DNA of 64,000 nt from a bacterium (GTDB lineage Bacteria; Patescibacteriota; Dojkabacteria; JAKAPS01; JAJZLI01). Positions within the stretch are counted from its first letter, which is position 1, and every line of letters starts with the position of its first letter. The notes under the pieces are model-generated. The model was not told the DNA's origin. It searched no databases and saw only the letters and a list, made by a program, of their open reading frames with translations. Positions 5,008 to 35,079 of the stretch are shown piece after piece. The stretch is from NCBI GenBank assembly GCA_021846685.1, contig JAJZWL010000001.1:71484-135483 (forward strand), in the 5' to 3' direction. The translations under genes were made by a program, and so were the position numbers.

Positions 5008-6117
5008 ATGGATAAAGAAAAAATTCTAACTAAATTAGATAAAATAATTACTTCAAGTAATAAGATTCTTTTAGTTACAAATACTAGACCAACCCTTGAT
5101 AGTGTTGCATCTCTTTTTTTGATGTGGCATTTTTTAACAGTTAATTTTAAAAAAAATGTTAATATTTATATCCCCAATTTTCCTCATAGGTTAGAATACT
5201 TATTCAATTATTCTATGTTAGAAAAAAAGGATATCATTAATCTATTTTTAAGAGAATATAAATTGTCAGTTAAAAAACAAGACGGACAAGTAGATCATGT
5301 CCGATATGCTGATGACAATAAAAGTTTTAATTTTTTTATTGCACTTAAAAAAGGAGCACTAGATTTATCTTCAGTAAAACTAGATAAAGCTTCTTTTGAA
5401 TATGATTTAATAGTGACTCTAGATGTGGAGGACCTTAATTTTATAGGAGATCTTTATAAGACATATAAATCTGATTTTGATAATTTTATTAAAATTGTGA
5501 ACATAGATAGTCATGATAAGAATCTTAAATTTGGAGATTTAAATATACTTTCAACAGAATATTCTTCTACATCTGAAATAGTATTTAATCTCATTTCTCA
5601 GTTTGATAGTATTACTTCTCAAAAAGAGTATCAATTAGTATTAATGAGTATTTTATCTAATACAGAGAACTTATCAGTAGGGAATATTCCTATAAAGACC
5701 TTCGAAAATTTGTCTATATTACAAACTAAGGGAGGCAGTATTAGAAATTCTATACTGGAAGTATATTCACCTTTGGATATACAAGATTTTAAAATTAAGG
5801 CTAATATATTAAAAAATATAACCGAATATAAATATAAAGGAAAGAAATATTTATACTCAGTTATAAATAAAGGGGATATTCGCTCTTCATATCTTTCAGA
5901 GATTTATATGAAAGATGTTGATTTGACCTGTATTGCAGTAAAAGGAGATTCATTAAAGATTTATATTAAGGATTTTAAAAATAGACTCAATGAGAAAGTT
6001 CTTTTAAGTCAATTTAAAGATGTGAAATTTGATAGTGGGGTATATTCTTTTAATTCAGATAGTGAAAATATTGAAGATGTATTAGAGTTAATAGCTAATA
6101 TTAAACTTGTTTCATAG
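5008..6117 (+). CDS. DHH-like phosphoesterase-fold protein with degenerate catalytic motifs (NrnA-like position after infB)
   Basis: N-terminal LLVTNTRPTLDSVAS aligns with DHH motif I (HxxPDxDxxGS) but His and Asp are replaced. VNIDSHD sits where the DHH motif would be. No clear DHHA1 GGGH motif. Confidence 0.3.
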   Translation: MDKEKILTKLDKIITSSNKILLVTNTRPTLDSVASLFLMWHFLTVNFKKNVNIYIPNFPHRLEYLFNYSMLEKKDIINLFLREYKLSVKKQDGQVDHVRYADDNKSFNFFIALKKGALDLSSVKLDKASFEYDLIVTLDVEDLNFIGDLYKTYKSDFDNFIKIVNIDSHDKNLKFGDLNILSTEYSSTSEIVFNLISQFDSITSQKEYQLVLMSILSNTENLSVGNIPIKTFENLSILQTKGGSIRNSILEVYSPLDIQDFKIKANILKNITEYKYKGKKYLYSVINKGDIRSSYLSEIYMKDVDLTCIAVKGDSLKIYIKDFKNRLNEKVLLSQFKDVKFDSGVYSFNSDSENIEDVLELIANIKLVS

Positions 6118-9070: not shown

Positions 9071-10048
9071 TTAATTACTATTTTGTACTATAAAATAACA
9101 GCTCCATTGGTTACCTTTTCCGTCATGTAGCATTCTTGCCATATCTGCAATTTGTGCATAAGGATTTTCTATTCCAAATGAGGCATAAGGATTTTTAGCT
9201 GTATTAAAAGTAGTAGCCATGAATTGAGCTATTCCATAAGCTCCTGATGGATTTTGTGCTGTAGGTTCAAAATGACTTTCACAAGTTATTATCTTATTCA
9301 TTAATATAGAATTTACTCCATAATTTGAAGCTGCTTGATTTATAAAATTTATATAATATTCTCTTCCAGTAGGATAGGATGATTCTGTAGGTATAGGCAA
9401 AATACTATTAGGAGGGCTTGGAGCTACTGGTTTAGGAGGGCTTGGAACTGCTGGTTTAGGAGAGCTCTGATTTACTTGTTTAACTTGTTTAAGAGGGCTT
9501 TGCTCTGTTAATTGAGTATTTTCTTCTTGAATGAGTTTATTTACAGCTTCTTTATTCAATAATGCTTCTTTAGAATTTGTTATTATAGGAGTAATTGGTC
9601 GTAGGCTTGTTGCTATAGGTATAAGATTGTTTGGTAGTAATCCTTGTTCTGGAGAATTTGTAATAGGAATAATTGGCAGTAATGTTGCGAGGGCTAATGT
9701 TCCTCGTCCTAATTTTTGTTTAAATGCAGTCAATCTATCTTTAATTACTACTTTTTCTCTGGTAGGAATATTGCTATTTAATGCTGCATTATTAATGATA
9801 GCTAACTTTTCAGGGTCTAATGGGTGAAAAGCCGCATTAGCTTCATTAAAAAAAACAGAAAAAGCATAAATAGTTTTACTATCCATACTTATATTCCCTG
9901 AATTAGGCTTTTTTTTCTCTATAGCTGAAGATGTTCTTCTTATAGAAGCTGATAAAAGTTCTTTTTCATCTGCTATAAGATGGTCACCCTCTTTTGCTAT
10001 TGCAACAGGAATTATATCCCTGTGCAAGACAGGTTCTCTTTCATACAT
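9071..10048 (-). CDS. Lytic transglycosylase (SLT-domain) protein with Pro-rich linker
   Basis: C-terminal CESHFEP...SGAYGIAQF matches the catalytic Glu and the GLMQ-type motif of family-1 SLT domains. Central PKPAVPSPPKPVAPSPP linker. Confidence 0.6.
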   Translation of the reverse strand: MYEREPVLHRDIIPVAIAKEGDHLIADEKELLSASIRRTSSAIEKKKPNSGNISMDSKTIYAFSVFFNEANAAFHPLDPEKLAIINNAALNSNIPTREKVVIKDRLTAFKQKLGRGTLALATLLPIIPITNSPEQGLLPNNLIPIATSLRPITPIITNSKEALLNKEAVNKLIQEENTQLTEQSPLKQVKQVNQSSPKPAVPSPPKPVAPSPPNSILPIPTESSYPTGREYYINFINQAASNYGVNSILMNKIITCESHFEPTAQNPSGAYGIAQFMATTFNTAKNPYASFGIENPYAQIADMARMLHDGKGNQWSCYFIVQNSN

Positions 10049-26726: not shown

Positions 26727-27488
26727 CTAACTCTTATCTAAAAGTTCTATTAATGATAATTTTAGATGAGGAATAATATTTCTTTGTCTCAAAGGAAGGA
26801 ATTTATTCAAATCATTCTTTAATTTTTTATCATTAAAAATTTGAACTCTTTTTTTTATTTCTTCTAATGTTACAATATTTTCATATAATTTCATTTTTTT
26901 GGACAATAATTCATAGTCTATTTTTACACCACGACTAAGTAAAAGCCATATATCAAATATATCTCTTCCTTTAGACCTTGTCATTAATGCTCTAATCTTT
27001 TCTGATAATATTTCAGAAACTCCAAATACTTTAATAATTGATGAATAGGGTATAGGCATTGAGGATTTTAGTAAAGAAGTATTTTCTTCTAACCATTCTT
27101 CTTGAGTGTTGATATCAATTCTTATATTTAATGGTTGAGATAATAAGCTATTCTCATATTTCAGTTTTGCTTTGAAATTGTCATACTTATTCACAATAAT
27201 GTCTAATCTTATTCCAGGTAAGAAATTTTGAATATCCTTCGTACTTTTTTCAAATAATATTTCTAAATCTGAATAAGATAATTTAGAATCAAAATCAAGA
27301 TCTTCACTAAAACGTATTGAATCATATACTAATCTTAATGCAGTTCCTCCTTTAAAGAAAATCTTATCACTATTTTTTGTTTGATATAAAGCTCCTAGGA
27401 AAACTAACTGAATATATTCCCTAATAATAGTATATTCATCAATTTCCCAATTAGAAGAATATTTTTTGAAATCTATATCATTGATCAT
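26727..27488 (-). CDS. AbiEii/AbiGii-family nucleotidyltransferase toxin (type IV TA / abortive infection), copy 1
   Basis: FFKGGTALRLVYDSIRFSEDLDFD, the hallmark DUF1814 motif; 4-nt overlap with the upstream AbiEi gene. Confidence 0.75.
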   Translation of the reverse strand: MINDIDFKKYSSNWEIDEYTIIREYIQLVFLGALYQTKNSDKIFFKGGTALRLVYDSIRFSEDLDFDSKLSYSDLEILFEKSTKDIQNFLPGIRLDIIVNKYDNFKAKLKYENSLLSQPLNIRIDINTQEEWLEENTSLLKSSMPIPYSSIIKVFGVSEILSEKIRALMTRSKGRDIFDIWLLLSRGVKIDYELLSKKMKLYENIVTLEEIKKRVQIFNDKKLKNDLNKFLPLRQRNIIPHLKLSLIELLDKS

Positions 27489-28066
27489 GTTATTATATTA
27501 TTAAATAATTTATTAAAAGGTTTCGAATTTACTGTTGATGCTATCTGTTTTAGCTTTTTTATGTCTATTTCCGAAAGATCCCATTCATCATAGTTTAGAT
27601 CATTTCCTCTTAAAGATGCAAAATATATACTGTCAATAATTGTTTTTTCTTTAGATGCAATATTGAATTCTATATTTTTATTATCAGTGTAAAAAAGAGA
27701 TGTTTTTATTTTACTATATTTATATTCTTTATTATTAAAGATAAATGCTTTTGCTTCCTTAGTTGATATTGATGTTATTGTAAATGGTGACTGATTAACA
27801 ATTCCATAATATGCTAAGGCTGTATCCAATGAAATATAAGATGGATTGTAGATACTATTTGCTATTGAAAAATCAGAAGGAGTTTCATCTTTAATGTAAT
27901 AAAGTCCTCTTTTTATACTAATTAATAATCCTTTTTTCAACATTCTACTAATAAGAATTATTAGGTACCTGCTATTATTAATATCAAGAAGATTTCTAAT
28001 ATCTTGAGTAGTAAAGGTATCTTTTTTAGTATTTTTCAGTTTTATATAAGTATCTAATATTTTCAT
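27485..28066 (-). CDS. AbiEi-family antitoxin/transcriptional regulator, copy 1
   Basis: N-terminal wHTH region (TTQDIRNLLDINNSRYLIILISRMLKKGLLISIKRGLYYI) typical of AbiEi; operon with AbiEii. Confidence 0.6.
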   Translation of the reverse strand: MKILDTYIKLKNTKKDTFTTQDIRNLLDINNSRYLIILISRMLKKGLLISIKRGLYYIKDETPSDFSIANSIYNPSYISLDTALAYYGIVNQSPFTITSISTKEAKAFIFNNKEYKYSKIKTSLFYTDNKNIEFNIASKEKTIIDSIYFASLRGNDLNYDEWDLSEIDIKKLKQIASTVNSKPFNKLFNNIIT

Positions 28067-28166
28067 ACATTGTAATTAATATACATTATTGTATACTAAC
28101 TCCAGCATATATGTCAATTAAAGAATATTTTTTACTATAGATAATAAATTATATAAGTTTATATAT

Positions 28167-28251: not shown

Positions 28252-28293
28252 TTGACATATCAAGGAGTTCCTAATATACTAGGAACTAGGAAC
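28252..28293 (+). promoter_or_regulatory. Sigma70-like promoter (TTGACA-17-TATACT) overlapped by a palindromic operator GTTCCTAatatacTAGGAAC plus a third TAGGAAC half-site
   Basis: Direct reading at 28252-28293, 19 bp upstream of the ATG of the wHTH-PRTase gene. Confidence 0.45.
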
Positions 28294-28311
28294 TTGTATT
28301 AATTTAAAATT

Positions 28312-29292
28312 ATGAAACAAACAACTTCTGAGAAAATAATAGAGTATATAAATAAATTTGGCAGAGCTACTGGAAAAGAGCTATCTGACGCTATTCCCGC
28401 CATCACTAGTAGAGCTATAAGAAAACAGTTGAAATCTATGCTCGAGAAAAATATTCTTGAGAAGATAGGGAAACCTCCTAAAGTGTATTATCTTATTGCA
28501 ACCAGTAAAAATGTACCTAATCCAGTTTTAATTAATAAAAGTGTAATGGCACTTATCAATGATAGATATTTATATATATCTCCCACTGGCAAGATGAAGG
28601 AAGGTTTAGATGGGTTTGTTATGTGGTGTGAATACACTCACCAAGATATAAAAAATACTTCGATTAAATATCTAGAAACAATAAAAAAATATGATCAATT
28701 TAAGAAAAATAGCCTTATAGATGGAATGCCCAAAATGAAGAGTACTTTTGATCCTGTTTTTGTAGACAAACTTTTTTATTTAGATTTTTATAGTATAGAG
28801 AGATTTGGAAAAACAAAGCTCGGTCAAATGCTTCTTTATTCAAAACAAAGTCAAAATAAAGCACTTATACAAAAATTAATAGCTACTATCCGCCCTAAAA
28901 TCATAAAAGTTATTGAGGATTATAATATTGATGGAGTATTATTTATACCACCAACTGTAAAAAGAGAAATACAATTTATGAAAGAATTAGAAAAATTTCT
29001 GAAATTACCAATAAAAAGAATATCTGTCACAAAAATAAAAACAGAAATTATTATTCCTCAAAAAACATTATCAAAACTTGAAGATAGAGTTGAAAATGCT
29101 AAACGCACTATAATGGTAGATGATTTTGATTTATATACCAATATACTGATTATTGACGACGCTGTAGGCTCGGGTGCAACATTAAATGAAACAGCAAAAC
29201 AAATAAAAAATAAACATATAGTAAGAGGAGATATAATTGGACTTGCAATAACAGGGAGTTTTAAAGGATTTGATATTATTAGTGAAGTATAA
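28312..29292 (+). CDS. Winged-HTH plus type-I phosphoribosyltransferase-domain protein (PurR-like architecture)
   Basis: N-terminal wHTH (GRATGKELSDAIPAITSRAIRKQLKSMLEKNILEKIG), C-terminal PRPP-binding motif NILIIDDAVGSGATLNETAK. Confidence 0.55.
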   Translation: MKQTTSEKIIEYINKFGRATGKELSDAIPAITSRAIRKQLKSMLEKNILEKIGKPPKVYYLIATSKNVPNPVLINKSVMALINDRYLYISPTGKMKEGLDGFVMWCEYTHQDIKNTSIKYLETIKKYDQFKKNSLIDGMPKMKSTFDPVFVDKLFYLDFYSIERFGKTKLGQMLLYSKQSQNKALIQKLIATIRPKIIKVIEDYNIDGVLFIPPTVKREIQFMKELEKFLKLPIKRISVTKIKTEIIIPQKTLSKLEDRVENAKRTIMVDDFDLYTNILIIDDAVGSGATLNETAKQIKNKHIVRGDIIGLAITGSFKGFDIISEV

Positions 29293-29585: not shown

Positions 29586-29614
29586 TTGACAAAAACTATA
29601 GGATCTTATATAGT
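29586..29614 (+). promoter_or_regulatory. Sigma70-like promoter TTGACA-17-TATAGT upstream of hydrolase paralog A; near-identical to the promoter of paralog B
   Basis: GTCTTATTGACAAAAACTATAGG... versus GTCATTGACAAAAATTATAGG... on the minus strand at 45868-45896. Confidence 0.5.
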
Positions 29615-29646
29615 ATACTCAATTATTTTTAACCTACTTAAATATA

Positions 29647-30693
29647 ATGAGTGCAGAAGAAACAGATAAGCAAATAAAAGATTCTCTTGGAACTATATCT
29701 GGACATTTTAGAGAATTCAATAATAATGCACCTCATTTTTTAGTGGATGGTGAAAACAAAGAGAATATAGAGGAGCTTCTTCCAGAAATAAAATTTGATG
29801 AAGTTAGAGATGCAGAAACCGAACAAGTATATAGAATTTTTATCATTAATAAAGAGATGCTCGAAGAAGGAAAGGTACCTCTTGTTCTTACATTCCAATA
29901 TAATAAATATAATATAGGAATAGATGACCCCTATTCTCAAGAGTTAGCGCAAGTAATGGCTCAAGGAGGAAGGCCTATTATCGGAATAGAAAGTCCGTCA
30001 GTTGGAGGTTCTTCTGATATGACTAAAGCACAAGAAGATAACTTAAATGTAGGAAAGAAACCTTTTGAAGAGATATCAAGAAGTCAATTAAGAGCACTTT
30101 CTGGGGAAATTTATCACAAAAGTAATAAGGATAAAGAAATAGATTTCGGAGGATATTCTCAAGGGGCAATTAATGCTTTGAGTAACGCTGAAGTAGCAGA
30201 TGAATTTGATTTAAAAGTTAGAAATGTTGTTATGCTCGATCCACCAGGCATAACAGATCATACTGAAGGTAAAGGAAGGAAGTGGGCAATTGTTGGATTG
30301 GGCAGAGCAATGAGATCAGAAACTTCAAATCTAAGTTTTTATGGATTTGATGATAAAAAATATTCTATTTTAGCAAAAAGTCTATCAATTAAAAATGATG
30401 ATATTTTTTTAAGAAAAATGCAAATTTTATATTCTGCTGCTACAGGCAGAATAGTTCTTCCTGAAATTTTAAGATCAGTATTATCAAAACAACCTCAGAT
30501 AAAAATAACTTTTATAAACGGATCTGAAAGTAAAATTACATTAACTGAGGATAGAAAAAAATTATTTAGAGAGTTTAGTAATGATAAGAGAATAAGATGG
30601 ATAGTTCTTCCAGGAGATACTCATTCAGTAGGCGTGAATGTTAGAAGAATCGGATGGTTATTTAAATTTATAATGAAAGATCAACGTATGTGA
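29647..30693 (+). CDS. Alpha/beta-hydrolase-fold protein, paralog A (putative esterase/lipase)
   Basis: GxSxG nucleophile elbow FGGYSQGA, C-terminal LPGDTHSVG (catalytic His candidate). Shares REFNNNAP.FL.DG, FINGS.S and RIG motifs with the 44786-45844 product at about 35-40% identity. Confidence 0.5.
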   Translation: MSAEETDKQIKDSLGTISGHFREFNNNAPHFLVDGENKENIEELLPEIKFDEVRDAETEQVYRIFIINKEMLEEGKVPLVLTFQYNKYNIGIDDPYSQELAQVMAQGGRPIIGIESPSVGGSSDMTKAQEDNLNVGKKPFEEISRSQLRALSGEIYHKSNKDKEIDFGGYSQGAINALSNAEVADEFDLKVRNVVMLDPPGITDHTEGKGRKWAIVGLGRAMRSETSNLSFYGFDDKKYSILAKSLSIKNDDIFLRKMQILYSAATGRIVLPEILRSVLSKQPQIKITFINGSESKITLTEDRKKLFREFSNDKRIRWIVLPGDTHSVGVNVRRIGWLFKFIMKDQRM

Positions 30694-30863: not shown

Positions 30864-31931
30864 TTAAGCTGTAGGGTTAAAATAGTTTTCCACTGCAAAT
30901 CTGGATTGTTGCATAAATATATTTTTTAATAAACTTAAATTGTTTATTTCATAAAATACTAACATTGCTTCCCTATATTCATTAACATCTACATTTCTAA
31001 AAGATAATGGAAAAGAATTATGCGATAGTAGTAAAGCATTTGCAATAATTCTTCCTGTTCTTTTATTTCCATCCTCAAATGGTTGTATATATCCAATTAA
31101 TGGTATTGTAAGTAAAGCTTTTTCAAACACATTAGTTTTATTGTTAATAATTTTACAATATTGCTCTAATGCCTCTCTTATCTGAAAAACATTATCTAGT
31201 GGTTTATAGTTTGTTCCTGTTATTCTAACCAAACTATTTCTAATGTTTTTTGTCACACCCAAGTTGTCAATTAACAGTGAATGAATATGTTCAATTATTC
31301 CAACATTTAGTTCTATAAATTGGTCACCATTCTGTAATATGAATTCTAACGCTTTTTTGTGATTTATAATCATTATGGCCTCCTCTTTCTTTTTACCTTT
31401 TGCTTCTATACCGTCTTTTAAAAGAGTTTCAGTTTCAAGTAGAGTATATGTATTACCTTCCAAAACAGAAGATTTCCAGCTTATTTCAATTATTGCTCTT
31501 TCAAACTCTTTTTTTCGAATAACATCACTTAACTGTTTTACATTACCATTAAAATTTTCATTTAGAGTATTTAATTCAGATAATTCTTCCTTCGTCAATA
31601 TTTCATTTTGAACCAATGAAAATATATTACTATTGAATCTCTCTATAATTTCTCTATGATCAATATCTTTTTCATAATATTCCTTAGTATTTATATTCCT
31701 GAGTAAATTATATTTTATACTTAATCTATAACTAGTAGCTTTACCATTACCATGCTTCTCGATTAAATTTAAATTTAATAAATAAGACAGATCTCTATTT
31801 ACAGTCATGAAAGAGACTTCTTCATCAACAGTTTTTAAAAAATCAGTTATTTGAGATCTACCTAGCCACTTTTGAGTGGAAAGAATATTTAAAAGTTTGG
31901 ATTGTCTTTTATTTAATTTCATAATATTCAT
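30864..31931 (-). CDS. Fic/DOC-family protein with N-terminal wHTH
   Basis: Fic motif HPFEDGNKRTGRIIANALL (HPFx[DE]GNGR) and N-terminal HTH (SQITDFLKTVDEEVSFMTVNRDLSYLLNLNLIEK); 355 aa. Confidence 0.8.
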   Translation of the reverse strand: MNIMKLNKRQSKLLNILSTQKWLGRSQITDFLKTVDEEVSFMTVNRDLSYLLNLNLIEKHGNGKATSYRLSIKYNLLRNINTKEYYEKDIDHREIIERFNSNIFSLVQNEILTKEELSELNTLNENFNGNVKQLSDVIRKKEFERAIIEISWKSSVLEGNTYTLLETETLLKDGIEAKGKKKEEAIMIINHKKALEFILQNGDQFIELNVGIIEHIHSLLIDNLGVTKNIRNSLVRITGTNYKPLDNVFQIREALEQYCKIINNKTNVFEKALLTIPLIGYIQPFEDGNKRTGRIIANALLLSHNSFPLSFRNVDVNEYREAMLVFYEINNLSLLKNIFMQQSRFAVENYFNPTA

Positions 31932-32143: not shown

Positions 32144-32440
32144 TCAATAAACTTGATTATGACTTCCAGTATCAACAAATACAAAGACAACATTATTTTC
32201 TTTCTCATAGTAGATAATCCTGCAATCTCCTGTTACTGAAAACGATCGGTACATTTTCAACTTTCCAGTTAATCGATGATCTTGTAGTATAGGGGTAAAA
32301 CGATCTTCTAAAAATAAATCAATGCGCTGTTGAACACGTTGTTCTAAATTTGTTTGATTGCTGATTCTTGCTTTAAAATGTTTAATAAAATCCTTTGTGT
32401 ATTCAATTCTCTTCTTCATCTTTGAAATTTCTAACTGCAT
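32144..32440 (-). CDS. RelE/ParE-family type II toxin
   Basis: 98 aa; IEYTKDFIKHFK...RIIYYEKENNVVFVFVDTGSHNQVY matches RelE/ParE; overlaps the upstream antitoxin gene. Confidence 0.7.
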   Translation of the reverse strand: MQLEISKMKKRIEYTKDFIKHFKARISNQTNLEQRVQQRIDLFLEDRFTPILQDHRLTGKLKMYRSFSVTGDCRIIYYEKENNVVFVFVDTGSHNQVY

Positions 32441-32729
32441 CTATAATGTTTTTCCCGGAATAGGCAGTATACAAATTGCCATTCTTGGTCTCTGCTTCTA
32501 TTTCTGCTCGTTTTTTATCTAGATATTCTTCAAATTCTGGAGAAATATGTTCATCAGCATGTGGAGAAGAAAGAGTAAGCTGAATGTCTCCTTTGGAAAA
32601 ACTCATAATAAATATCCTTATTACCTCTTGAAGAGAACTATAGCCATAATCATGGGCTACCTTTTCTGCCTGTTTTTTTACAGATTTATTAAGAGGAACT
32701 TGTATTTTAGCGTAATCTGTTTGAATCAT
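32403..32729 (-). CDS. Putative antitoxin partner of the RelE/ParE toxin
   Basis: 108 aa acidic protein immediately upstream and overlapping the toxin gene; family not assigned. Confidence 0.45.
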   Translation of the reverse strand: MIQTDYAKIQVPLNKSVKKQAEKVAHDYGYSSLQEVIRIFIMSFSKGDIQLTLSSPHADEHISPEFEEYLDKKRAEIEAETKNGNLYTAYSGKNIIDAVRNFKDEEEN

Positions 32730-32941
32730 AATTCTTTATTTATTATTTACTTTCATTATTATACCACTTTGATACTTTTTGTCAACATATTACATCTGTT
32801 CAGATTCTTATCAGGTTGAAAAATTAAAACATTAATGAATAATTTATTAAGCAAGAATAGAAACTTTAAACTGAAAAATGAATCCCTTTATCAAGATTAT
32901 TGCTTGGCTTATTGATTTTTGTATTATGTTGTCGCATCCAT

Positions 32942-33029
32942 CGGAGAGAGAGAGATTCGAACTCTCGCGAGGATTTCTCCTCCTAAGGGTTTAGCAAACC
33001 CTCCCCTTCAGCCACTTGGGTACCTCTCC
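32942..33029 (-). tRNA. tRNA-Ser (anticodon GCU)
   Basis: Minus-strand read GGAGAGGTACCCAAGTGGCTGAAGGGGAGGGTTTGCTAAACCCTTAGGAGGAGAAATCCTCGCGAGAGTTCGAATCTCTCTCTCTCCG. Anticodon loop TTGCTAA, long variable arm, T-loop TTCGAAT, no encoded CCA. Confidence 0.85.
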
Positions 33030-33078
33030 AAATATAATAAAGTATATCAAAAAATGAGTTTATATAAAAGTTAATTGT

Positions 33079-34011
33079 ATGTTGTATAATATATTATTAA
33101 TGAATAATAAAAATAAAATCTTAATATTTTTTCTTGTAGTTATAGTATATTTTTCTATATTAGTTTTAGTTTTTATACACTTTATAAATATTCCTGTAGT
33201 AGGGAACAAAGAAAGAAAGGTGGGCATAAATTCTAAGATAAATATAGTTGCATCTGTAAATTATTTCAATCCTTTTAATTTCAAAACTCAAAATTCATCA
33301 ATATCAAGTACCTCTTCAGGAAAGGTTATTCAGTCAAATATTGTTGCAAATTTTGCAAGTATAAAAAATGAGACAATTATCTACTTCGTGCATAAACAAT
33401 GGAAATATACAATAAACGCCACAAATACTCTATTTAAAAAGGATAATGTAATAGTTTATTATAAAAAAAATGGACATAATACTTTATTGGAAATATACAT
33501 ACCAAATAGCTTTAAAATATCTGACTTAGTATCATTATTTGATGTTAACTATAGTACCTATTCATATCCCTTTGACTATACTCAGATGAATGATACTTTG
33601 GCTTCTTTAGATACGACATATACTCCATATATAAGAAGTACTTCTTTTGTTTTTTATAAAAATAATTTCAATAATGTTGGTCATTTCCAGTACAACACAC
33701 CAATAGAAGAAATTAAGGGTGTCTCAATGATTAATACTTCTTCACAAGGGAGTATTAATAGTCTTCTACATGAGTATATGTCAAGGTTTTCTATATGGGG
33801 ATATATTCCTTTTACTGTATATGGAGCTATAATTGATAATAATACAATATATTATCTTAAGTATGGTTTAGGGGGTGCGAGTATAAAAGTTTTAGTTAAA
33901 CCTGAAAATGGATATTCTTTTGTATATTATAGTATAAAAGTCTCTGCTTCTTCTTCAAACAATAATTTATCCTTGTTTAATAGATTGGGATGGAGTAGTG
34001 TATTTAATTAA
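33079..34011 (+). CDS. Hypothetical membrane-anchored/secreted protein
   Basis: N-terminal signal-anchor ILIFFLVVIVYFSILVLVFIHFINIPVV; Asn/Ser/Tyr-rich ectodomain; no family. Confidence 0.35.
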   Translation: MLYNILLMNNKNKILIFFLVVIVYFSILVLVFIHFINIPVVGNKERKVGINSKINIVASVNYFNPFNFKTQNSSISSTSSGKVIQSNIVANFASIKNETIIYFVHKQWKYTINATNTLFKKDNVIVYYKKNGHNTLLEIYIPNSFKISDLVSLFDVNYSTYSYPFDYTQMNDTLASLDTTYTPYIRSTSFVFYKNNFNNVGHFQYNTPIEEIKGVSMINTSSQGSINSLLHEYMSRFSIWGYIPFTVYGAIIDNNTIYYLKYGLGGASIKVLVKPENGYSFVYYSIKVSASSSNNNLSLFNRLGWSSVFN

Positions 34012-35079
34012 GCTTTGAGAGTTTAATTTTATTTGTGTATACCAATTAGATAGGTTGTGGATTAAATCTTTATCCTTAGTATTTAATGCAATTTCAGATG
34101 TTCCAAATAATACTCCGAATGTTGAAAAGTTATGTGATCCTATTATTAAAGAAGAATTAGGGGCATTTTTATCTAAAATTATCATTTTTGCATGTATATA
34201 CTTTTCAGACTGCTCATATAAATTAGAAAGATTTATATTGCTTAAATTAAATAGTATTTGCTCTATTTTATGTCTAATTTTTTTTTCGGCAATACTATTT
34301 GAATGTACAATAATCTCAACTGCAAGACCTCTTTTAACGGCTTTCTGAAGTGCAAAAAGAATTTTAAAATCTGGTAGGAATTGAGATATATAGCTAATAT
34401 CTTCTTTCGCATTATTTATAGCATTAATGGCCTCATTATATATGATAGATTGTCCTTTTTTCCCAGAATCTATAAGAAGTGAATTTTCTTTATTAATATT
34501 GACTATCTTGTCACTATATTTTATTCCTGTACTGTTCTTTAAGAAGATACTTTTTAAATTATTTCTAATTTCTCTGTCTTTTGTTTTCACCATGAAGTCA
34601 TAATAATTAAAAGATTTTTTCCCAAAATTCATTCCACCTATATATGAATAATTATCAATTATAGTTATTTTCATATGATTTCTTCCTATAAAGGGGAAAT
34701 ATTCAGCTATAGCTTTATTATATCTATATTCATTGATAAAATTGATTTCAATATCAGCAGATGTCATTTCTTTGAAATATTTTTGACTTATTTGAATATT
34801 ATTTTTACATTTATCTCTTTTTTCTTTATTTATATGTATAAAATACTTGTGTCCTTGGATATATTGATTTGAGTAATTATCAATATTGAATTTAACTGAG
34901 ACCCCTCTTTTTTTAGCTGCTATAACTTCTTTTGTAAATTCTTTTAAAGAATCATCAAAATATACATACATTGCTTGTATATATATATTTTTTTTTGCCT
35001 TTTTAACAAGTTGAATAAGATCACTTAGATATTCTTCTGAAGGTATTAATTCATACATTACTAATATACAATATATCAA
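33967..35079 (-). CDS. Phospholipase D-family protein with two HKD motifs (cardiolipin-synthase-like, no TM)
   Basis: HMKITIIDNYSYIGGMNFG and HAKMIILDKNAPNSSLIIGSHNFS, i.e. two HxK(x4)D(x6)G(S/G)xN motifs. Confidence 0.75.
   Translation of the reverse strand: MIYCILVMYELIPSEEYLSDLIQLVKKAKKNIYIQAMYVYFDDSLKEFTKEVIAAKKRGVSVKFNIDNYSNQYIQGHKYFIHINKEKRDKCKNNIQISQKYFKEMTSADIEINFINEYRYNKAIAEYFPFIGRNHMKITIIDNYSYIGGMNFGKKSFNYYDFMVKTKDREIRNNLKSIFLKNSTGIKYSDKIVNINKENSLLIDSGKKGQSIIYNEAINAINNAKEDISYISQFLPDFKILFALQKAVKRGLAVEIIVHSNSIAEKKIRHKIEQILFNLSNINLSNLYEQSEKYIHAKMIILDKNAPNSSLIIGSHNFSTFGVLFGTSEIALNTKDKDLIHNLSNWYTQIKLNSQSLIKYTTPSQSIKQG

Follow-up and report, generated by a model that had tools for sequence, protein, structure and literature searches.

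A winged-helix, phosphoribosyltransferase-like protein of Dojkabacteria and the three-half-site element on its promoter: a probable autorepressor from a family centred on Patescibacteria

We analysed a stretch of 64,000 nucleotides (nt), hereafter the window, from a Dojkabacteria genome (Patescibacteriota; GenBank assembly GCA_021846685.1, contig JAJZWL010000001.1, positions 71,484 to 135,483 of the forward strand). We focus on one of its genes, which codes for a 326-amino-acid (aa) protein combining an N-terminal winged helix-turn-helix (wHTH) and a C-terminal domain resembling type I phosphoribosyltransferases (PRTases), and on the promoter in front of it. Few Patescibacteria have been cultivated, and how they regulate transcription is, to our knowledge, almost uncharted for that reason. 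The promoter, the putative operator and the coding sequence are laid out as follows, positions being those of the window; “hood” is a positional label given in this analysis, and PRPP stands for phosphoribosyl pyrophosphate.

28252 to 28257, + strand: −35 hexamer TTGACA (direct reading and promoter scan).
28267 to 28273, + strand: left operator half-site GTTCCTA, an inverted copy of TAGGAAC within the promoter spacer (conserved at orthologues).
28275 to 28280, + strand: −10 hexamer TATACT, formed by the operator spacer region and the first T of the next half-site (reading and promoter scan).
28280 to 28286, + strand: right half-site 1, TAGGAAC, completing a perfect palindrome with 28267 to 28273.
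28287 to 28293, + strand: right half-site 2, TAGGAAC, which repeats half-site 1 directly and without a gap, where transcription is expected to start.
28312 to 29292, + strand: coding sequence, counted with its stop codon, of the wHTH-PRTase-like protein of 326 aa (reading of the open reading frame, ORF), ending ...NILIIDDAVGSGATLNET...
28312 to 28506, + strand: wHTH, residues 1–65 (AlphaFold helices at 5–16, 21–27 and 33–45, strands at 49–54 and 57–62).
28408 to 28446, + strand: predicted recognition helix, residues 33–45, SRAIRKQLKSMLE (AlphaFold model; co-varies with the half-site in 81 orthologues).
28537 to 28926, + strand: helical/beta subdomain in the position of the PRTase hood, residues ~76–205, with the invariant block YLDFYSIERFGKTKLGQ.LLY.KQSQN.
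28927 to 29265, + strand: type I PRTase core, residues ~206–318 (Foldseek against PDB; invariant motifs).
29140 to 29181, + strand: PRPP-binding loop NILIIDDAVGSGAT, residues 277–290 (direct reading).

A preliminary description of this sequence had reported a TTGACA-17-TATACT promoter, a perfect palindrome over its −10 and an extra TAGGAAC copy, and all three are indeed present between 28252 and 28293. Direct reading gives a 17-nt spacer between TTGACA and TATACT, a 6-nt spacer (atatac) between the GTTCCTA and TAGGAAC arms of the palindrome, and 18 nt between the end of the operator and the ATG at 28312. The promoter matches the consensus at 11 of 12 positions, which makes it the best + strand match of the promoter scan between 26 and 31 kb. 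The word TAGGAAC itself is not over-represented in the window (9 copies for 7.1 expected); three of these nine copies are, nevertheless, clustered in 27 bp at this promoter. Whole-window scans, which cover the 64 kb, returned a single exact match to the palindrome, the six other matches all having 3 mismatches. We also considered an RNA element in the 5′ region and rejected it: no Rfam family matches the 5′ intergenic region or the flanks and, as the palindrome begins ahead of the −10 in the window with its left arm, a hairpin would not be transcribed.

In order to compare this arrangement between genomes, we used an ortholog set of 81 non-redundant loci (L numbers designate loci throughout), the search for homologues of a neighbouring 348-aa protein covering 85 loci besides the window. 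The three-half-site element was searched for within 130 nt upstream of each orthologue, mismatches being counted over 14 positions, and 3,866 windows drawn from the same loci served as controls. With at most 1 mismatch, the element was found at 57 of the 81 orthologues against 2 of the 3,866 control windows; with at most 2 mismatches, these figures become 68 and 23, respectively. The palindrome first seen in the window is thus present at orthologous loci, whose flanking genes and upstream DNA are otherwise unrelated: an orthologue with 67% identity and an identical operator, for example, is located between glycosyltransferase genes and a tRNA.

The element is made of two half-sites of 7 bp, inverted with respect to each other and separated by 6 bp, and of a third one abutting one of the two. 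Practically every orthologue has this third half-site, be it to the left or to the right of the palindrome; the orientation of the element relative to the gene, accordingly, varies between L-6-R-R (the window type) and L-L-6-R, where L and R are left and right half-sites. It always lies on the core promoter, though its position with respect to the −35 and −10 differs. In a first layout, that of the window, the operator spacer itself is the −10; in a second one, found with other TAGGAAC types, the element spans the −35 and the promoter spacer, with the −10 just downstream; in a third one (AGTTGAC type), the half-site contains the −35 TTGACA. Among 133 unique exact operator sites, 91 have TAnnnT at the spacer position (TATACT 47 times, TACACT 30 times), and 33 of the 133 also have at least five of the six TTGACA bases 16–18 nt upstream of this TAnnnT.

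Some loci depart from the common design. At L041 (~5900–5976), two operator types stand in tandem before one gene: the first, AGTTGAT-AGTTGAC...ATCAACT, contains a promoter (TTGACA-17-TATAAT), and the second, of the TAGGAAC type, comes after it, an arrangement that suggests either cross-regulation by a paralogue or promoter shuffling. Remnants similar to this tandem were seen at L053 and L065. Four Melainabacteria loci (L050, L062, L068 and L076) have longer nested palindromes mixing half-sites, AGTTCCT AGTTCAC T GTGAACT AGGAACT, that is, four heptads in inner and outer pairs instead of three.

Across the orthologues, the sequence of the half-site depends on the clade, the three copies within each site changing in concert, and it follows the sequence of the predicted recognition helix:

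Helix R[AG][VI]RKQL: half-site TAGGAAC (38 of 38 orthologues).
Helix RAVFKQL: half-site TATGAAC or TATGCAC.
Helix QALFK[HQ]L: half-site GTCAAC.
Helix [VM]AV[HS][RK]QL: half-site TGTAAAC.
Helix TAIHKQL: half-site TATAAAC.
Helix ASVHRQL: half-site TGTATAC.

Two of these classes meet on a single 679-kb Levybacteria contig (CAVRKE010000002.1), which carries a paralogue with the helix RAVRKQL and a TAGGAAC operator (L018, gene at 5992) and another with the helix TAIHKQL and a TATAAAC operator (L023, gene at 6001); this suggests that the two paralogues are insulated, orthogonal circuits. As far as sequence comparison can tell, such a pattern is the one expected of a repressor acting on its own promoter, and a neutral relic would not behave in this way. 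Since the operator is conserved in unrelated contexts and its half-site tracks the helix, the autoregulation proposed in the preliminary description gains comparative support. Taken together, conservation and co-variation are, in our view, strong evidence from comparison for a protein that binds to the promoter of its own gene and represses it.

Assigning the protein to a known family was not an easy task. Matches to hidden Markov models are individually weak yet concordant: the N-terminal part resembles HTH domains of the HxlR type (the wHTH matches being weak and of HxlR/ArsR/MarR type), and the C-terminal part matches Pribosyltran, PRTase-CE and comF. Both Pfam matches, Pribosyltran and PRTase-CE, are below cut-off; we did not use PRTase-CE (PF24390), which scored 18.3 bits for a cut-off of 27 and for which we found no paper text defining the family. 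The comF model TIGR00201 covers residues 174–301 only (E=2.5e-4, 21 bits for a cut-off of 233.55). A ferritin match at residues 69–121 (E=0.008) was set aside as spurious, being short, outside a ferritin fold in the model and without support from the fold search.

Structure prediction was more informative. The AlphaFold model, built on a family alignment of 37 sequences, has a mean predicted local distance difference test score (pLDDT) of 85 and comprises a winged helix (residues 1–62), a short disordered linker and a Rossmann-like alpha/beta domain. Compared with PDB by Foldseek, it is closest to Helicobacter pylori ComF (7p0h, E=3.8e-4), followed by PyrR, HPRT and APRT, with probabilities of 0.93–1.0; the C-terminal domain thus has a type I PRTase fold. 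Type I PRTases are recognised here by a Rossmann-like five-stranded core and a loop made of four hydrophobic residues, two acidic ones, any three residues and [ST]-G-x-[ST]. The loop ILIIDDAVGSGAT (residues 278–290) fits this pattern, and D282, D283, G286, S287, G288 and T290 are invariant in the 37 sequences. The same alignment gives as invariant motifs of the core PPxV.R..Q, T.I..PQK.L..L.DR..N and D-D-x-x-G-S-G-x-T; the first two, PPTVKR..Q and T..I.PQK.L..L.DR..N, also occur in ComF proteins. The architecture put forward in the preliminary description, a wHTH followed by a type I PRTase domain, is therefore borne out by the model, the fold matches and the intact PRPP loop.

With ComF as the best solved-structure match, the comF model aligned over residues 174–301 and ComF-like motifs conserved, one may ask whether the protein is a ComFC-type competence protein in which a winged HTH replaces the zinc finger and which would act on the DNA taken up in natural transformation. 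Patescibacteria depend on DNA uptake for nucleotides, which also speaks for this explanation. The TIGR00201 score is, however, less than a tenth of its cut-off, the protein has no Cys4 zinc finger (its single cysteine is C106), and none of the 81 loci shows linkage of the gene with comFA, comEC or dprA; the gene occurs, besides, in only a small minority of Patescibacteria species. Moreover, the predicted reading of specific double-stranded DNA at its own promoter would be the behaviour of a regulator rather than of a protein handling single-stranded DNA. We consider this explanation very improbable.

Among models of defence systems, the best match by far is the C-terminal PRTase of PsyrT/RqlH (PDLC03928, E=5.5e-14), residues 111–314 aligning with positions 479–682 of the 689 of the model; the retron III-A PRTase (E=9e-5) and ShosT (E=7e-3) come next. 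The hood subdomain is covered by this PsyrT model and partly by comF TIGR00201. These relatives bring in an explanation of another kind, in which the protein would be a stand-alone, autoregulated toxic PRTase effector forming a one-gene defence or addiction module: a PRTase that consumes PRPP or is genotoxic would be rendered harmless by tight self-repression and by tethering to its operator, and the loss of this repression or the release from DNA, for instance upon phage infection or DNA damage, would unleash it, deplete PRPP and arrest the cell. The related domains are indeed toxic through their PRPP pocket (for ShosT, see also PMC12961424): its aspartates are functionally essential in PsyrT/RqlH and needed for the toxicity of RqlH (PMC4670107), the toxicity of ShosT needs the equivalent acidic residues of the PRPP loop (PMC11961720), and the effector of Retron-Eco11, which couples a PRTase to a winged helix, depletes PRPP (PMC12746101, PMC7736814). 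The very high conservation of the C-terminal domain would agree with such an activity. The motif Gx14PNNxP specific to retron PRTases is, on the other hand, not present. As most of the evidence on this explanation comes from the distribution and surroundings of the family, we return to it once these have been described.

The family is large. We found 4,265 homologues in a database clustered at 90% identity, typically 62–70% identical over their full length (the best 120 of the 4,265 span 62–100%) and most of them unnamed; clustering at 50% identity leaves 201, 419 and 652 clusters at E<=1e-30, 1e-10 and 1e-3, respectively, nearly all of proteins of ~325 aa. In species-representative genomes, 325 stretches encode a relative, out of about 185,000 genomes. 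Relatives occur in Levybacteria, Roizmanbacteria, Woesebacteria, Moranbacteria, Falkowbacteria, Zambryskibacteria, Saccharibacteria, Peregrinibacteria/Peribacteria and Gracilibacteria and, outside Patescibacteria, in Melainabacteria and Saganbacteria. Public annotations call them “hypothetical protein” or “HTH type 11 domain-containing protein”, and our literature search found no description of a wHTH-PRTase family. A phage or plasmid origin was considered and rejected: the family was not found in IMG/VR, among INPHARED phages or among PLSDB plasmids, and a fold search of BFVD gave no full-length match.

One protein of 324 aa (P0082) is found in identical form in metagenome-assembled genomes (MAGs) labelled Roizmanbacteria and Levybacteria, and on 34 contigs, which reflects either a recent transfer between lineages or noise in binning or labelling. 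Decayed copies also exist: at L120 (12684–12962), nothing but a truncated winged helix is left behind an intact operator, L187 has an internal deletion, and L203 is apparently frameshifted. A paralogue within the window was considered too and rejected, the other 325-aa ORF (9071–10048) being unrelated.

We then looked for the operator away from the family gene, by searching metagenome contigs for exact matches to GTTCCTA-N6-TAGGAAC-TAGGAAC; with 21 specified bases, the estimated number of chance matches is close to zero. At least 120 exact sites were found, and the matches listed fall into the following classes:

64 sites: adjoining a family gene, in the window orientation L-6-R-R.
26 sites: adjoining a family gene, in the opposite orientation.
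12 sites: undecidable, with a contig end within 300 nt.
18 sites: no family gene on either side (18 of 108 decidable sites, about 15% overall).

These non-self sites, which include some duplicates and one decayed copy (L120), precede genes of several kinds. On three contigs (L124, 12059–12085; L154; L176, 2712–2738), the downstream gene is groES (Cpn10, E=1.5e-30): 8 nt separate the exact operator from the −35 of a TTGACA/TATAAT promoter downstream of it, with no family gene nearby, and this arrangement is kept in two diverged genomes. Others lie upstream of HicB-like genes and of small zinc-ribbon genes. On short contigs (L127, 8402–8428, also L130 and L132; L112, L156, L174 and L189), exact operators are found 14–29 nt upstream of small genes; L127 is a phage-like contig, with a DnaD-like loader, HNH endonucleases, an exonuclease and a peptidase, where the gene downstream of the operator is phrog_27831. 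Purine genes are not among the genes downstream of the non-self sites listed. As the exact operator is found before groES, hicB-like and phage-like genes, a small trans regulon reaching mobile elements is likely on this sequence evidence.

A few of these sites have peculiarities of their own. The L127 operator is placed after a promoter-like TTGACA-17-TAATGT, so that it would be transcribed, and it could act as an RNA hairpin too. Four half-sites, with an extra TAGGAAC, are present at L170 (5859–5892) and L175 (1569–1602), one of which adjoins a gene for PrgI (type IV secretion) while the other is 153 nt from a divergent gene for an S1-domain (rpsA-like) protein. The sole match in a viral collection (L206, 4717–4743, IMG/VR UViG_3300005077_000011) was treated as a coincidence, since it is part of an ORF of 150 aa and codes there for VPNWLGTRN.

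Coming back to the window, the gene stands in a variable stretch (26–35 kb) rich in toxin-antitoxin and defence genes. This island contains a gene for an NT5C nucleotidase, AbiEii, AbiEi, the wHTH-PRTase gene, an orphan 348-aa gene, an HTH-Fic gene, a YafQ-type toxin with its putative antitoxin, a tRNA-Ser and a PLD-family protein:

26727 to 28066, − strand: AbiEi (193 aa) and AbiEii (253 aa), a complete pair with a 4-nt overlap.
29586 to 30693: orphan 348-aa ORF (the “hydrolase A” of the preliminary description), with a near-consensus TTGACA-17-TATAGT promoter.
30864 to 31931, − strand: HTH-Fic protein (PADLOC PDC-S04, 2e-19; SoFic, 6e-16).
32144 to 32729, − strand: YafQ/ParE-type toxin (98 aa) overlapping an upstream putative antitoxin of 108 aa.
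32941 to 33030: tRNA-Ser(GCT).
33967 to 35079, − strand: PLD-family protein with two HKD motifs.

The gene is adjacent to and divergent from abiEi, and the preliminary description had, from this position, suggested that the protein may control the 348-aa “hydrolase” and/or act together with AbiEi/AbiEii, for instance as a third component of that system. AbiE genes also recur near orthologues, at L001, L018, L041 and L059. This amounts, however, to AbiEi or AbiEii within ~6 kb in only 4–5 of the 81 loci, and orthologues, close as well as distant, sit in very different neighbourhoods, including the one between glycosyltransferase genes and a tRNA mentioned above, whose operator is identical. In the window, abiEi has a separate promoter (TTGACA-18-TACAAT, 28117–28088) ~135 bp from that of the wHTH-PRTase gene. 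This promoter bears an imperfect inverted repeat of its own (28071–28085 and 28090–28104), which is independent of the TAGGAAC element and could be an AbiEi operator. As for the 348-aa protein, it contains a GYSQG (GxSxG-like) motif and matches nothing in Pfam, NCBIfam, PADLOC or PHROGs; a homologue is present in 0 of the other 85 loci, and its gene has a consensus promoter to itself, in which no operator-like site is seen. Comparative data thus largely refute both partnerships, to which we give hardly any credence. The proximity of AbiE is incidental, and the lesson is that such adjacency in a single genome was misleading.

More generally, no neighbour is conserved across the 81 loci, the commonest being RelE/YafQ (6 loci), a DUF4143 ATPase (6), AbiEii (5) and Fic (5, or about 4–5), and 12 of the 81 loci, for about 3.5 expected, have a tRNA gene at a distance of 400 nt or less. 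The lack of a conserved neighbour and the proximity of tRNA genes point to a stand-alone gene that tends to lodge in variable islands.

These observations bear directly on the effector explanation introduced above. Counting in its favour are the patchy distribution among species genomes, a gene standing alone in changing neighbourhoods where toxin, ATPase, AbiE and Fic genes recur, the island context and the excess of tRNA genes, as well as the identical protein in MAGs of two candidate phyla, the operator on a phage-like contig and the orthogonal operators of paralogues, as in toxin-antitoxin systems. Against it, no DprA-like antitoxin (PsyrA/ShosA), reverse transcriptase or non-coding RNA recurs nearby in the 81 loci, defence genes are seldom as conserved as this one, with its 55–70% identity between candidate phyla, the searches of IMG/VR, INPHARED and PLSDB were negative, and the groES-linked operator points to ordinary gene regulation. 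All in all, we hold a toxic effector to be the main alternative, albeit an unlikely one.

The reading that we favour, with a probability of roughly 0.6, is that the gene encodes an autorepressor of a large, uncharacterised, Patescibacteria-centred family, whose PRTase-like domain would serve as a ligand-binding regulator. Comparison indicates that the N-terminal winged HTH recognises the tripartite operator that overlaps its own core promoter. Type I PRTases are usually dimers, so that the protein would probably bind as a dimer; sitting on the operator, such a dimer would occlude RNA polymerase and thereby keep the protein at a low level by negative autoregulation. In the window, the −10 falls inside the operator spacer, and the region where transcription should start is under the third half-site; with three half-sites, the dimer would have a choice of two registers, in which the half-site centres are 13 or 20 bp apart. 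The C-terminal ComF/PsyrT-like domain would bind PRPP or a related phosphorylated sugar or nucleotide, which would alter DNA binding as in PurR and GfcR; PRPP or a related compound seems the most likely ligand, and the domain may still turn PRPP over. The same operator before groES, hicB-like and phage-contig genes would add a small trans regulon to the control of the gene itself.

Several points weigh against an autorepressor of this kind. The promoter calls are consensus matches alone, and shared descent partly confounds the co-variation of helix and half-site, which is given here with no phylogenetic correction. In the 37-sequence alignment, conservation is higher over the C-terminal two-thirds of the protein than over its DNA-binding part, and the nearest relatives of the former act as toxins or effectors through PRPP binding (PMC4670107, PMC11961720, PMC12746101); an active enzyme or effector fits these facts at least as well as a passive sensor. 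As for the ligand, it is guessed from the conserved residues of the PRPP loop. There is no second operator in the 64-kb window or in the 666 kb of orthologue flanks scanned (at most 2 mismatches, beyond chance-like matches), hence any trans regulon would be small, and some of the non-self sites may be relics of lost copies, as at L120.

One can also imagine sensor and effector in one molecule, that is, a PRTase tethered to DNA. A few molecules per tiny cell would sit on the three-half-site operator, in registers of 13 and 20 bp. Copies of the site on phage-like or conjugative DNA would draw the protein either towards the invader or, by titration, away from the promoter of its own gene, unleashing a PsyrT-like, PRPP-consuming activity; a single gene would in this way make up an immunity or addiction module programmed by sequence, with a readable code between helix and half-site and with orthogonal paralogues. 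We offer this as speculation and would not expect it to be correct.

The family has practical interest. It offers a ready-made regulator-operator pair whose recognition code is unusually clear, with a specificity table of at least six helix/half-site classes, and its operator marks candidate target genes, such as groES and genes of mobile elements. The biochemical role of the ComF/PsyrT/ShosT/retron branch of PRTases is debated, and the domain is found here in a simple, soluble, single-gene context that is maybe easier to dissect. If the domain is a sensor, the protein would represent a third independent origin of HTH-PRT (PRT, phosphoribosyltransferase domain) regulators, after PurR and GfcR; if it is an effector, the protein would represent a new minimal defence or addiction module.

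How does the protein compare with known systems? It lacks defining features of each of PurR, ComFC, PsyrT/RqlH, retron III-A and GfcR. The parallel with Bacillus subtilis PurR drawn in the preliminary description stands for the architecture, in which a winged helix at the N-terminus precedes a type I PRT-like domain that has a PRPP loop, and PurR is likewise a dimeric repressor acting at inverted repeats on or near promoters, its own included, which comes off the DNA when its PRT domain binds PRPP without catalysis. PRPP acts as its inducer and guanosine tetra- or pentaphosphate, (p)ppGpp, as its anti-inducer, through the PRT domain (PMC8789054). The parallel does not extend to kinship: neither PuR_N nor TIGR01743 matches our protein at E<=0.1, and PurR chains were not found in the PDB profile search (E<=10), among the top 50 fold matches or among sequence matches, so that we rejected membership of the PurR family. 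PurR, furthermore, uses two 14-bp CGAA PurBoxes 16–17 bp apart before purine genes, whereas three 7-bp half-sites are found here, and our protein has an extra subdomain of ~125 residues between the wHTH and the PRT core. With PsyrT/RqlH and ComF as the closest relatives of this core, the resemblance to PurR is best explained by a fusion that arose independently, from the ComF/PsyrT branch of PRTases.

GfcR of Haloferax volcanii provides a second precedent, with an N-terminal HTH fused to a PRT domain turned into a ligand-binding regulator that responds to sugar phosphates; HTH-PRT regulators have thus arisen repeatedly, and PRPP is not necessarily what they sense (PMC10838023). The alignment with GfcR is, however, limited to the PRPP loop (NF002620, 17.8 bits for a cut-off of 115, residues 269–301), and GfcR is an archaeal protein of ~200 aa that activates sugar catabolism.

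Within the ComF/PsyrT/ShosT/retron branch, PRTases are consistently coupled to DNA-binding or DNA-processing partners (PMC5512222), and PsyrT/RqlH shares with our protein a C-terminal PRTase attached to such a module. In PsyrT, this module is an N-terminal RecQ-like helicase instead of a wHTH, so that the last ~200 model positions alone match, and a DprA-like antitoxin (PsyrA/RqlI) is its partner, none being recurrent in our 81 loci. Retron III-A and ShosT PRTases act by PRPP binding or depletion (PMC12746101, PMC11961720), but their models match weakly (E=9e-5 to 7e-3; PRTase_III-A, 9e-5 to 7e-4). The winged helix is C-terminal in retrons and N-terminal here, where PNN is also lacking and no retron reverse transcriptase is among the recurrent neighbours of the 81 loci; ShosT, for its part, has a pyrophosphatase-like N-terminal domain and a DprA-like partner. 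ComFC/GntX proteins include the best solved structure (7p0h) and have in common with ours the motifs around the pyrophosphate and flexible loops. They differ by a Cys4 zinc finger in place of the winged helix of residues 1–65, which is predicted to read double-stranded DNA in a sequence-specific manner, and by a competence-gene context that our loci do not have, besides the TIGR00201 score far under its cut-off. By architecture, then, the protein resembles PurR and GfcR, while by descent its PRTase domain appears, from the sequence and fold matches, to belong to the ComF/PsyrT/ShosT/retron branch; it probably represents an uncharacterised family of HTH-PRT regulators, born of an independent fusion and found mainly in Patescibacteria.

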